NCBI GenBank assembly: GCA_964016885.1
Contig: OZ024741.1
Coordinates: 218,364,001 to 218,428,000 of the forward strand
Reading direction: 5' to 3'
DNA: 64,000 nt
From: Eledone cirrhosa
Lineage: Eukaryota
The position numbers and the translations under genes are program-made. Of this stretch, positions 8,740 to 63,280 are shown in pieces; the stretch's first letter is position 1; each line of letters opens with the position of its first letter. Below the pieces are notes generated by a model. The model worked only from the letters and a program-made list of their open reading frames with translations, had not been told where the DNA came from and made no database searches.

Positions 8740-9120
8740 AATATTATAATGAAATGACAGGAGGCTGGATTTGTGTAAATCCTTGAAAGGTTTATTATAC
8801 TATGATCATTTCAATTACCGGGTTCCGTATGAATCCGGTGATATCATCAGGTATTCGAAATATTTCGAATACCTGATGATATCACCGGATTCATACGGAA
8901 CCCGGTAATTGAAATGATCATAGTATAATAAACCTTTCAAGGATTTACACAAATCCAGCCTCCTGTCATTTCATTATAATATTTAACTCCGTAATAACAC
9001 CACCAACTACAAAAACAAAGACGGTTGAACTGCTTTACGTTGAGTACTCTCTATATTATTACATTGCGATTGACCATACGGAATAGACCAGCTCTATCCA
9101 GTGGTGAACCTCAAACGTGA
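8740..9120 (+). mobile_element. Solo pLTR-like unit with inverted duplication (244-bp perfect palindrome 8740-8983 plus unique tail) inside (TA)n
   Basis: Arms read as exact reverse complements about centre 8861/8862, with no loop. (TA)n on both sides. Confidence 0.8.
8869..8926 (+). ncRNA. Type I hammerhead ribozyme motif (mirror copy on minus strand at 8797-8854)
   Basis: ATAC-CTGATGA-T-ATCACCGG...CCGGTAAT-T-GAAA-TGATCA-TA-GTAT: stem I ATAC/GTAT, long stem II, palindromic stem III ATGATCAT. Confidence 0.75.
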
Positions 9121-9399
9121 ATATATATATATATATATATATATAGGTGGTTTAATTTACGAATAAAATTTTCTGTTTTGACTACTTTTTAGCACAATCT
9201 GCTTCTTTAAAAACATTCTGTTGATCTGGTGAAACTGGTGTAGGTCCCAGTAACATCTGTAGCAACAGATGTGTTGATCACACTACATGTGTTGATCATC
9301 CGGGTTACTAACGGTGTGTCATGGCTCAGGGGAAGTATAACTGATATGGAGCAACACCTACACAACTTCCTCCAACACCACCAACACGTCCAGCATGAA

Positions 9400-9900
9400 C
9401 TACCACCACCGCCGCCGCCGCCACCAGAATCACCACTAACGACATCGACGACTACTACTACTACTACTACTACTACTACTACTACTACTACTACCACTAC
9501 TACTACCACCACCACCACCACCACCACCACCACCACCACTACTACTACTACTACTACTACAACCACCACTACTACTACTACCACCACCAACACTACTACT
9601 ACTACCACCACCACCACCACCACCACCACCACCACCACCACCACCACCACCACTACTACTACTACTACTACAACCACAACCACCACTACTACTACTACCA
9701 CCACCAACACTACTACTACTACCACCACCACCACCACCACCACCACCACCACCACCACCACTACTACTACTACTACAACCACAACCACCACTACTACTAC
9801 TACCACCACCAACACTACTACTACTACTACTACTACTACTACTACTACTACTACTACTACTACTACTACTACTACTACTACTACTACTACTACTACTACT
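9400..9900. repeat. Compound (ACT)n/(ACC)n trinucleotide repeat with internal ~120-bp duplication
   Basis: Direct reading. accaacactactact recurs at ~9585, ~9703 and ~9808. Confidence 0.92.
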
Positions 9901-10009
9901 ACAAGTACTTAGCTATGGCTGAGATATCAGTTGAACGCGAAAGACCTGAAATAAGTCGTGTCTGGAGATAAGAAGGAATAACTAGAAAATCTTCCTAAAC
10001 CAGATGTTT

Positions 10010-59208: not shown

Positions 59209-61687
59209 AACTTTGAACTTTGAATAACTTTGAAATGTTTTGGCCAGTATTGGCCCAGGCCATGTCTAACTTAATAGCACCACCTGGCGAAGTCTTTCAA
59301 TTCAGGATTTGGGCACCATGGCCCATTCGAGAAGAGAATTACTGTTTGCGGAGACATATCCGGGTGTGGGTGGTTTGTCCGGGATTACTTGGAGGAATTT
59401 GTCCAAAGACTTCTTGAATTTTGTGTGGTCAGTTTCTGTTTTGACGTGTCCTGGTGTGATGTTGAAGAGAGCAGGGCCGATTGAGGTGAAATAATTGTGC
59501 CGTATTGTTGTTATGAGTTGCGATTTAGATTTTTGAATGGGACGGATAGCACGGGGCCCAAGCCTTGGGTGTATCTTGAAGGCGATGCCAACATCATTTG
59601 GGCAGTGATGATGGAACATTTTCCACATCATGCAGATAATATAACGCTCACGGCGACGTTGGAGTGAGTAAAGTTTCAGGTTTTCCAATCGACCCCAGTA
59701 GTCTGACATGCCATCTATCTTTTTCGTGATTGCCTTTGAGGAGCTTCAAGTTTCATGATACTTTGTTTCGTGTGGGAGACCACAGTGGACAACAGTATTC
59801 AAGGTGTGGTCGGGCGAAAGTAGAGAAGAGAAGGATAATGGTGCGGGAATCTCTCGACTGGAAGGTTCTGAGGATCCAGGAACACATTCTGCGGGCCATG
59901 TCAACTTTGCTGCTTATATGCGTGGTCCAGCTTATGTTGCTGTCCACGGTTACTCCCAAGTCTCTGATGTTGTTAGATGCCACGAGAGTTTCCCCGGAGG
60001 GAAGGGAGTACGGGAGTTTCAGAGCATCCTCTTTTCCAAAGTGGATCAGTTCGAATTTGTCTTCGTTCAGTAACATGTTGTTCTTTTCTGCCCATTGGGT
60101 AACAGCCAGTAGGTCTGACTGAAGGCTTATCCGGTCATCCACGCCATTGATGACCTTTTGGAGCTTGGAATCATCAGCGAAAATTTTAATGTTGCTGTGT
60201 TTGATGATGTCAGTGATGTCATTAATATAGATGATGAAGAGAAGTGGGCCCAACACAGTGCCTTGTGGGACTCCACTACTGACTTTGGCTGGGCTTGATT
60301 TGACTCCCTCAACTACAACATGTTGGGTTCTGTTGACAGGAAGCTCTTGATCCACTGCAGCAGCTTTCCAGTGACACCAATATTGGACAGCTTTCTCAGT
60401 AGAATGTTATGATCAACCCTGTCAAAGGCCTTGCTGAAATCAAGGTAGATAACATCAGTGTTGGAACCCTCTCCCAAGGCTCTCAAAATGTCATCAAAGT
60501 GATGCAGTAGTTGCGTCAGGCAATCCCTTCCATTACGGAATCCATGCTGGTTGGAGTTCAGCATATTGTTACTCTCAAGGAAGTGGGTCATTCGCGATCT
60601 CACCACTCGCTCAAATACCTTAATGATATGAGAGGTGAGTGAGATTGGACGGTAATTCACGGCAAGGGATTTGTTTCCCTTTTTGAAAACTGGGACAACA
60701 GACTGGGATAGAAGGTTTTCTGGCACATATCCAGCATCCAGTGAGTTCCGCCACAGATTGGCAAGAGGAGAAGCAAGTTGGTGTTGACACGCCTTCAAGA
60801 CACAAGCAGGGAACCTATCGGGACCTACTGCTGAATTATGCTTGATTTCCTTTATTGCCGCCAAGACATCAGGGGGCGCCAAACGTTATGTCCGATAAGG
60901 TGTAATGGGAGTAACATCGCCGATACAGCCCAGATCGGCCATATCAGGATTGCTGAAAACAGAGCAGTATTGTTTCTGCAGTATCTCACCCATGGTTTTA
61001 GCATTGTCTTGAAGAGTGCCATTTTCATCAATTAGAGGGCCAACAGTAGAGCCAGTGATTTTGTGTTTTTTTGCAAATGAAAAGAACACTTTGGGATTGA
61101 GTTTGATCTTCTCAATGGCCCAGGCCTCTTCAGCTCTTCTCTGATTGTTGATGAGGGACATTATGTTGTTTTGGAGGTTATGTTTTTTAATCTCTAGTGA
61201 TGAAATGGCAGTCAAGTTGATGTGTTGCTGCTGACAGTATTTCAGATTGTTGATTTTTTGTTCGTTCTCTTAATTTTTCTGATGAGCGTTTTTCTATTTC
61301 TAGGGATTCTGCTCTTAGATTTGTTTATAGTTCTTAATGGGGTGTGTTTAGCACATATGTTTGTAACAGTGTCCACAAATGTCTGCCAGGATTTTTTGAT
61401 GTTAGTGGGTGTATGAGTGTGCGTGAAGGACCAGTCGACATGTGCAAGATCATGACTGATCGCTTCCCAGTTTGCATTGTGGAAATCCATAGCGTCAAAC
61501 GGATGGACAGGAGAAATGACATTGGTTTGTATATTGGACGGTGGAATCTCAGATCACAGAGAACCATGTCATGATCAGAGAGTAGAGTTTTCTCCACTGC
61601 AATATTGTGGATATTGTCAGTGTGATTGCTGAAAATTAAGTCTAGGACGTTTTTGTGGCACCTCGTTGGTTCGAGCACTAGTTGGGA
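59209..61687 (-). mobile_element. 5'-truncated, frameshifted CR1-group LINE ORF2 (end of APE endonuclease plus RT)
   Basis: [92 protein letters not shown]. Tail (ttcaaag)n. (TA)n at both ends. Confidence 0.93.
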
Positions 61688-62862
61688 TATATATATATAC
61701 ATATATATATATATATATATATACATATATATATATATATATATATATATACATATATATATATATATATATATATATACATATATATATATATATATAT
61801 ATATATATATATATATATATATATATGTATATATATATATATATGTATATATATATATATATATATATATATGTATATATATATATATATATATATATAT
61901 ATATATATATATATATGTATATATATATATATATATATATATATGTATATATATATATATATATATATATATATATATATATGTATATATATATATATAT
62001 ATATATATATATGTATATATATATATATATATATATGTATATATATATATATATATATATGTATATATATATATATATATATATGTATATATATATATAT
62101 ATATATATATATATATGTATATATATATATGTATATATATATATATATATATATATATGTATATATATATATATATATATGTATATATATATATATATAT
62201 ATATATATATATGTATATATATATGTATATATATATATATATATATGTATATATATATGTATATATATATATATATATATATATATATATATATATGTAT
62301 ATATATGTATATATATATGTATATATATGTATATATATATACATATATATATATATATATACACATATATATATACATATGTATATATATATGTATATAT
62401 ATGTATATATATATACATATATATATATATATACACATATATATATACATATGTATATATATATGTATATATATGTATATATATATACATATATATATAT
62501 ATATACACATATATATATACATATGTATATATATATGTATATATATGTATATATATATACATATATATATATATATACACATATATATATACATATGTAT
62601 ATATATATGTATATATATGTATATATATATACATATATATATATATATACACATATATATATACATATGTATATATATGTATATATATGTATATATATAT
62701 ACATATATATATATATATACACATATATATATACATATATATATACATATATATATATACATATATATATATATACATATATATATACATATATATATAT
62801 ATATATACATATATATATATATACATATATATATATATATATATATATATATATATATATAT
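61688..62862. repeat. ~1.2-kb (TA)n array with ~58-bp higher-order units in its right half
   Basis: acacatatatatatacatatgtat... recurs at ~62361, 62433, 62493, 62577 and 62649. Confidence 0.93.
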
Positions 62863-63280
62863 ACGTGGGAAAGTGAAAAATCGGAGAATAGACCGTTAAA
62901 ACATGTTTATTTAAAATATCACCTACGTACGTTTCGCCCAGTTGGGCTTCTCAAGGGCATAGACAATCACAAGTGTTCCTTATATAGTTCCGAACTATAT
63001 AAGGAACACTTGTGATTGTTTATGCCCTTGAGAAGCCCAACTGGGCGAAACGTACGTAGGTGATATTTTAAATAAACATGTTTTAACGGTCTATTCTCCG
63101 ATTTTTCACTTTCCCACGTGCTTACGCTCTGCTAACTCTCTAGCCCACTAAATATTAACACTTTGAATATTTAATACTGCCGGCACTAGTATCGAGCACC
63201 TTTGGCATACGCTACTTGGCAAATAACTATATGTATCACCTATCCCTCTTTTTTTTCTCTCTTTCTCGATACGTAAATAC
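62863..63280 (+). mobile_element. Solo pLTR-like unit with 257-bp palindrome (62863-63119) plus unique tail, inside (TA)n
   Basis: 128-bp arms about centre 62991, one mismatch. (TA)n on both sides. Confidence 0.8.
63024..63061 (+). ncRNA. Variant-core hammerhead-like motif (mirror on minus strand at 62921-62958)
   Basis: GCC-CTTGAGA-A-GCCC(AACT)GGGC-GAAA-CGTACG-TA-GGT. All three stems and a GUA triplet are present; the first core box is non-canonical. Confidence 0.55.

Follow-up and report, generated by a model that had tools for sequence, protein, structure and literature searches.

Insertions of Penelope-like elements (PLEs) are known to combine an inverted pseudo-long terminal repeat (pLTR) with a one-sided tail, to carry palindromes at the junction and to target (TA)n (PMC3846280, PMC8557442). 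Further features described for this group of elements or for related ones include opposite-strand pairs of minimal hammerhead ribozymes (min-HHRs) lying 100-700 bp apart (PMC4209133), large inverted terminal repeats in Drosophila virilis (PMC2377424), a U-U base of helix II (PMC7229834), and retrozymes as PLE derivatives (bioRxiv 10.64898/2026.07.22.740005). How these inverted ends and one-sided tails come about is described as an unsolved question in PMC3846280 and PMC8557442. In vitro, the Poseidon PLE protein of an anole cuts and extends both strands and initiates reverse transcription (RT) at two sites, one on either side of the tail, and hammerhead mutants do not block insertion (PMC11167929); for LINE-1 (L1), an untemplated G at the 5' end has been read as cap copying (PMC9341517). 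Here we analyze a stretch of the Eledone cirrhosa genome, 64 kb in length and referred to as the window (contig C2, OZ024741.1, positions 218,364,001 to 218,428,000), which contains four palindromes with hammerhead-like motifs: P1 (8740-8983), P2 (44124-44260), P3 (55917-56124) and P4 (62863-63119). The four palindromes are truncated insertions of four different PLE families, and we consider it likely that such stubs are made anew at each insertion, with both strands of a cut (TA)n priming RT of a sense RNA at two fixed sites and the resulting cDNAs being joined head to head. This reading is built on what was observed directly: which family each stub belongs to and how many copies it has, the two outer ends that stay constant within a family, the pairing of a short with a tail-bearing arm, variable centres and TA flanks.

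To count copies, the 3.0 Gb genome was searched with exact 30-32-nt core patterns, and reversed patterns served as controls. The four palindromes represent four different young repeat families (F1 to F4 for P1 to P4), the best copies of which are 98-100% identical. Exact core matches numbered 2,545 for F1, 4,210 for F2, 2,978 for F3 and 1,197 for F4, with none for the reversed controls. Other copies of these families keep the two outer ends, not the centre; the centres differ between copies in F1, F3 and F4, indicating that the inversion is made at each insertion.

The regularity of the two ends became evident from a census of joints, for which loci were taken in chromosomal order together with F1 and F4 pairs from the same ordered lists, giving 56 head-to-head joints. 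All of the 48 joints that could be classified (F2, 28; F1, 16; F4, 4) consist of one short and one tail-bearing arm (p 4e-15 against 50%), and among all 140 joints, biased loci included, there are two clear same-family cases of tail joined to tail (L015, L332). Such strict pairing suggests that one complex uses each site once. The two arms of a joint frequently differ in their 5' reach, the short arm extending further in 19 of the 48 pairs, the tail arm in 12 and neither in 17, and in four loci (L270, L287, L192, L273) the arms have no sequence in common. The short arm can thus carry sequence that the tail cDNA lacks, which argues against a simple fold-back of a tail-primed cDNA. Moreover, head-to-head joints between families were found in L023 and L224, although later deletion could also create these; in L023 (~1390-1500), F2 and F1 overlap by 3 nt at the joint, and TA lies at the outer side of each arm.

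TA flanks both sides of 48 of the 56 joints and one side of seven. (TA)4 lies no more than 125 nt downstream in 88 of 91 F2 arms, compared with 17% of random window positions, and in the unmasked part of the window 4.9% of bases are 50 nt or less away from (TA)6 or longer. This adjacency, which is above chance, supports the use of (TA)n as a landing pad, as had been proposed in a first-pass annotation of the window.

F2 differs in that its centre is nearly fixed. A search biased to arms with an extra G suggested helix I as the start of every F2 copy, which counts of 5' ends on exact-pattern, position-ordered samples did not bear out. The sample comprised 91 of the first 100 core matches listed, nine copies of one tandem array having been left out. 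Within it, 41 arms begin 0-7 nt before the hammerhead core (24 of these at 5-6 nt), seven were scored at 12-26 nt, and 43 continue for at least 40 nt. In the long F2 copies a TATA box is located ~30 nt upstream of an initiator-like CCAGATT, and the known TATA/initiator consensus and spacing were used to predict the start of the RNA. A non-C base precedes AGATTC, where C is native, in 695 matches; among the first 100 of these listed, the base is G in 87, T in eight and A in five (p 4e-41 against 23.5% G). Of 25 such G arms looked at individually, none continues into native upstream sequence, some join (TA)n directly, and none has the longer extension (GATG) that helix I would template. In P2 both arms carry the extra G, separated by a single base, and five further pairs within the first 100 listed matches have this junction, although the bases at the junction and the short ends vary in F2. 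No peak of 5' ends is seen where the hammerhead would cleave: a non-native base 3 nt ahead of the site occurs in only 37 matches genome-wide. So few arms begin there that the templates were mostly uncleaved, it seems. In F3, a G plus an A precedes the same start in P3 and L057 only. P2 could most simply be explained as two run-off copies of a capped leader that begins with hammerhead helix I, and the extra G of F2 likely records the RNA cap.

The proposed insertion would proceed as follows. Both strands of the cut (TA)n target would prime RT of sense RNA, and the two outer ends of each family would correspond to the two RT start sites. The 3' ends of the cDNAs would then anneal by 0-17 nt of microhomology or by a few added bases, and host repair would fill in the joined cDNAs. 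For F2, a TATA/initiator promoter would start the RNA at hammerhead helix I, so that RT from the 5'-proximal pair of sites would run off the capped end after 60-135 nt; a base added opposite the cap would appear as the extra G, giving mini-palindromes with a near-fixed centre such as P2. The hammerheads would be passengers, and the templates mostly uncleaved. Strand displacement or a second RNA would be required for one segment to be copied twice, and the reverse transcriptase of PLEs is not known to have RNase H. A more specific version, in which one ribonucleoprotein primes both strands, one per site, on sense, capped and uncleaved RNA, and in which F2 RNA starts at helix I so that nearly half of the arms are strong-stop-like leader run-offs, is one that we lean towards with modest confidence. 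The two-sided extension and two start sites of Poseidon (PMC11167929) fit the reading that two primings occur here.

Several points weigh against this proposal. Eight of the 56 joints remained unclassified: four have an atypical short end, one is inter-family, and three belong to F3, which were binned as tail joined to tail although their ends differ (228 and 265). Clustering is clear in F2 only, the centres of F1 and F4 being spread and no clustering at a start site appearing in 30 position-ordered F3 arms. The clade assignments given below are by motifs, and for F1 the loci examined yielded no coding partner. Among the 37 matches at the cleavage site, twelve are joints through helix I complementarity, so such pairing does act at junctions. 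The F2 start site and its cap are predictions. The site also reads as a 3' splice acceptor, with a T-tract and CAG, and the extra G is the base that would extend helix I by one pair, making a one-base self-templated addition possible.

These last points lead to a variant in which two-sided priming holds and the F2 5' end marks either a splice acceptor or a point where RT stops and adds one base templated by helix I. The T-tract and CAG lie directly before the site, an intron end maps at helix I in D. virilis (PMC4209133), and the added G matches its helix I partner. However, no shared upstream exon sequence precedes the G, the GATG extension is absent from all 25 arms, the TATA spacing fits a start site, and the 43 arms that continue upstream cross the site unspliced, which makes this variant rather unlikely in our view. 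A more general challenge comes from fold-back self-priming, proposed in the literature, by which one cDNA, or an antisense RNA as in PMC3846280, folds and copies itself. It would account for the near-perfect symmetry and for microhomology at many centres; joints mediated by helix I exist, and in 12 pairs it is the tail arm that reaches further 5'. It does not account for the 19 pairs whose short arm has sequence missing from the tail arm, nor for the four that share none. Loops of 0-1 nt between two arms that each have the extra G, as in P2 and five other pairs, cannot arise from one hairpin, the extra G is located at the sense 5' end, and the two inter-family joints, later deletion being a possible source of these, also speak against it. 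Fold-back is thus contradicted as the general route, for which we judge it improbable, and could explain a minority of copies.

The first-pass annotation had seen the palindromes as selected, strand-symmetric cassettes for ribozymes or double-stranded RNA (dsRNA), moved or kept as units. The nearly fixed F2 centre, the recurrence of the exact P2 junction, an isolated P2 arm that folds as a hammerhead (helix I pair probability 0.94) and the very stable hairpins predicted for whole palindromes would be expected on that view. Movement as a fixed unit is contradicted by the variable centres of F1, F3 and F4, and the RNA 5' end accounts for the fixed centre of F2, a family in which the bases at the junction and the short ends nonetheless vary. 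Furthermore, the cores of P3 and P4 are defective, the read-through fold abolishes helix I, and copies that are 98-100% identical are recent, with no sign of long-term retention, so that selected cassettes are very improbable. Perfect palindromes are also a known artefact of long-read data, and the reads compared with P2, from reduced-representation libraries of other samples, did not demonstrate its exact centre. Nevertheless, the symmetry ends at family-constant sites and does not enter the flanks, the arms of P3 and P4 differ by mutations, and 140 such joints occur in the loci examined. In addition, raw Illumina reads of two other samples hold an F2 head-to-head joint with another centre (17 reads with three starts and 10 reads with one start). 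Assembly or library fold-back artefacts are accordingly the least credible of these explanations, and we see next to no room for them.

A motif scan of long copies of F2 (L275, L280), F3 (L259) and F4 (L108) revealed RT and C-terminal GIY-YIG frames. The F2 and F4 parents share the motifs RWR/RWK (RWR being the F2 variant), DKT, YRDD, CxCx5C, YIG, CxxC and CxH; the F3 parent L259 has DKSG, YVDD, Cx4CxxC and CCHH residues. By these motifs the F2 and F4 coding parents are assigned to the Hydra clade and the F3 parent to the Neptune/Nematis type, the latter two clades not being separated. Pfam matches on the parents, RVT_1 at E 3e-4 (L259) and GIY-YIG at E 9e-3 (L275), were both below the curated cut-off and otherwise weak or absent. 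The F4 parent L108 has a 928-codon frame between pLTR copies, and the spacing of inverted ends in F4 reaches 2.9-3.1 kb. Direct or inverted pLTRs with a one-sided tail were seen in L108, L275/L276 and L119. In L119 (3300-6200), F1 forms a ~2.6-kb element with internal repeats and PLE-type ends, and its 2.6-kb direct-repeat unit contains no open frame longer than 164 codons; F1 is probably a non-autonomous PLE lacking an open reading frame (ORF). An ORF next to F1 in L029 and L106 was considered as its own and rejected, as it belongs to an F3-like neighbouring element. A PLE origin of the palindromes and the derivation of the hammerheads from the pLTR, already suspected in the first-pass annotation, are supported; the accompanying idea of ORF-less families holds for F1 in appearance and fails for the other three. 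On contig C1 (83679785-83691707; L279, L280), twelve F2 arms lie in tandem with a spacing of ~1.08 kb.

Within the window, a palindrome scan and inspection of the raw sequence confirmed all four palindromes of the first-pass annotation. P1 has 122-bp arms without loop or mismatch. Its inverted, short arm (8740-8861, minus strand) ends at the F1 short end site, with (TA)n abutting on the left, and its direct arm with a ~135-nt tail occupies 8862-9120 on the plus strand, the centre being a self-complementary ATAT overlap; the hammerhead-like motif (8869-8926, plus; mirror at 8797-8854, minus) has both core boxes and U-U at the base of helix II. P2 consists of 68-bp arms around a 1-nt centre. The tail-bearing F2 arm (44057-44191, minus) begins with the non-native G followed by the predicted start AGATTC, a single unpaired base (44192) sits between the two G-capped arm ends, and the short arm (44193-44260, plus) has the extra G, then a type I hammerhead (44193-44245), and a short end site next to (TA)n. 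P3 has a 5-nt centre, and a small indel beside the core distinguishes its arms: a long arm with its tail (55685-56018, minus; core box at 55964-55970), and the centre plus short arm (56019-56124, plus), with extra Gs before both arm starts, core boxes and no convincing helix I. The P3 tail extends leftward only, to ~55685, and neither end abuts (TA)n; the short arm ends in a TA-like stretch and then runs into another repeat fragment. A ~140-bp direct repeat (56350-56490 and 56880-57020) lies beside P3. P4 has 128-bp arms with one mismatch around a 1-nt centre. Its short, inverted arm (62863-62990, minus) abuts a long (TA)n array, and the direct arm with a ~160-nt tail (62992-63280, plus) contains a TATA-like box (62996-63002), a non-canonical first box (63027-63033), GAAA at 63047 and a palindromic helix III. 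The TATA-like box (62992-63002 and its mirror) is present on both arms of P4 just outside the centre and could constitute a small two-way promoter.

The one-sided tails of P1 (to ~9120), P2 (from 44057) and P4 (to 63280), and (TA)n adjoining both sides of each, agree with what had been noted for three palindromes; the tails, taken at that time for unique sequence, are the constant outer end of each family, and that of P3 had been overlooked. An older F4-like copy (8350-8670), 77% identical to L108, shares the (TA)n tract of P1; it has kept its palindromic helix III half, and its first core box is absent. Additional features of the window include a fifth palindrome (53417-53522; 45-bp arms, 16-nt spacer, one mismatch) that has no hammerhead and is part of another repeat, an open frame at 2593-3300 on the minus strand that weakly matches GIY-YIG (E 0.003) and probably represents the 3' end of a further PLE, and long minisatellite arrays (10600-13400 and 25300-41000) with repeated open frames in several phases.

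A strict type I hammerhead descriptor, run on the window, matched the two P2 arms only; among 20 shuffles used as control there was no exact-core match, and one match when one core mismatch was allowed. The P2 hammerhead has a helix I of 7 bp, a helix II of 3 bp with a U-U base and a stable helix III. In P1 both core boxes are present and helix III is palindromic, while helix I, 4 bp long, has a pair probability of ~0.17 when the arm is folded by itself. P3 likewise contains both boxes; its helix II measures 6 bp and its helix I at most 2-3 bp, and the minimum free energy fold pairs its first box away; in P4 the first box reads CUUGAGA where CUGANGA is expected. Rfam gave no hammerhead match for single P1 and P2 arms, and none among the 150 of 319 matches listed for the whole window, which were microRNA-type hairpin noise only. 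Judged from predicted folds, the hammerhead would be good in P2 and weak in P1, P3 would lack a real helix I, and P4 would have a non-canonical core. A hammerhead in each arm, as first annotated, is thus confirmed by the descriptor for P2, weak for P1, and deficient in P3 and P4. The ribozymes point outward, so in read-through of either strand the antisense arm is made first. Such read-through RNA is predicted to fold into a long hairpin (-110 to -229 kcal/mol for the whole palindromes) in which the ribozyme fold is lost, the helix I pair probability falling from 0.94 to 0.00 in P2 and from 0.17 to 0.00 in P1. Since helix I is abolished, the stubs would be poor ribozyme cassettes, and the idea of fixed, strand-symmetric cassettes is not upheld, two of the four ribozymes also being defective in the common family sequence. 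Raw reads X14-X16 aligned to 44148-44237 contain a head-to-tail F2 hammerhead repeat with a unit of ~77 nt (61, 23 and 34 reads), which resembles a small retrozyme-like array; these reads, the sole source of this tandem, come from other samples.

The finding is a clue to PLE insertion, not a new ribozyme device. The signature is largely known, inverted pLTR, tail, junction palindrome, (TA)n and opposite-strand hammerhead pairs having been described in PMC3846280, PMC8557442 and PMC4209133, so that the suggestion of an undescribed system falls; the mechanism may be the new part. Among open-access titles and abstract openings, neither two-sided priming with a one-tail rule nor capped-leader run-off stubs were found for PLEs. 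The observations bear on the insertion mechanism, for which the available text of PMC11167929 gives in vitro start sites only. If correct, the proposal would be an in vivo answer to the question of sense versus antisense templates and self-priming left open in PMC3846280. The F2 hammerhead would then be a device placed to remove the element's own cap, and from its location at +1 one might expect it to act in decapping or to keep run-off products of the leader in check. What the genome offers is near-identical stubs by the thousands, with their one-short-one-tail rule, non-overlapping arm pairs and cap-like G. The stubs also seed many perfect inverted repeats of 60-130 bp, a possible source of dsRNA if transcribed; the use of such RNA by ADAR or Dicer, raised in the first-pass annotation, is hypothetical.

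In LINE-1 twin priming, two primers from opposite target strands lead to an inversion, and L1 inversions copy adjacent, mostly non-overlapping RNA segments. Unlike in those, both cDNAs here usually copy the same segment, which yields a palindrome; shared with LINE-1 are opposite-strand primers giving inversion and, for L1 in PMC9341517, the extra G at full-length 5' ends. Non-LTR retrozymes (PMC7229834; bioRxiv 10.64898/2026.07.22.740005) are likewise non-coding, PLE-derived and equipped with a type I hammerhead, yet they form head-to-tail tandem arrays, whereas our four units are head-to-head stubs with parents that mostly encode RT. As in the min-HHRs of metazoan PLEs (PMC4209133), many motifs are solo, opposite-strand pairs occur, an extra base follows the first box, and the helix III of P1 and P4 is palindromic; in contrast to the motifs of that study, helix II is not closed by a G-C pair in P1 and P2, and P2 is predicted to fold as a monomer. 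The F2 and F4 parents resemble Hydra-clade PLEs (PMC8557442) in RWR/RWK, DKT, the CxCx5C linker, CxxC and CxH, in the absence of CCHH cysteines, in a size of ~3 kb and in (TA)n insertion. The hammerheads reported for that clade are canonical, whereas F2 has a U-U helix II base with a stable helix III and F4 a non-canonical first box. With the anole Poseidon PLE in vitro (PMC11167929), the proposed scheme shares extension of both target strands, two RT start sites bracketing the tail, an AT-rich target and uncleaved RNA as main substrate; in the available text of that study no strand difference in start site was seen, and the one-short-one-tail rule, capped 5' run-off and head-to-head joining of cDNAs are not described. 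The closest match is the insertion unit of endonuclease-positive PLEs (PMC3846280, PMC8557442), with its head-to-head inverted end, one-sided tail, 5' truncation, (TA)n and pLTR hammerhead. Compared with that unit, the insertions in E. cirrhosa are extreme stubs of 200-420 bp present in thousands of copies, their tails measure 40-160 nt instead of 30-40, and the asymmetry of their arms argues against the self-priming reading of PMC3846280.

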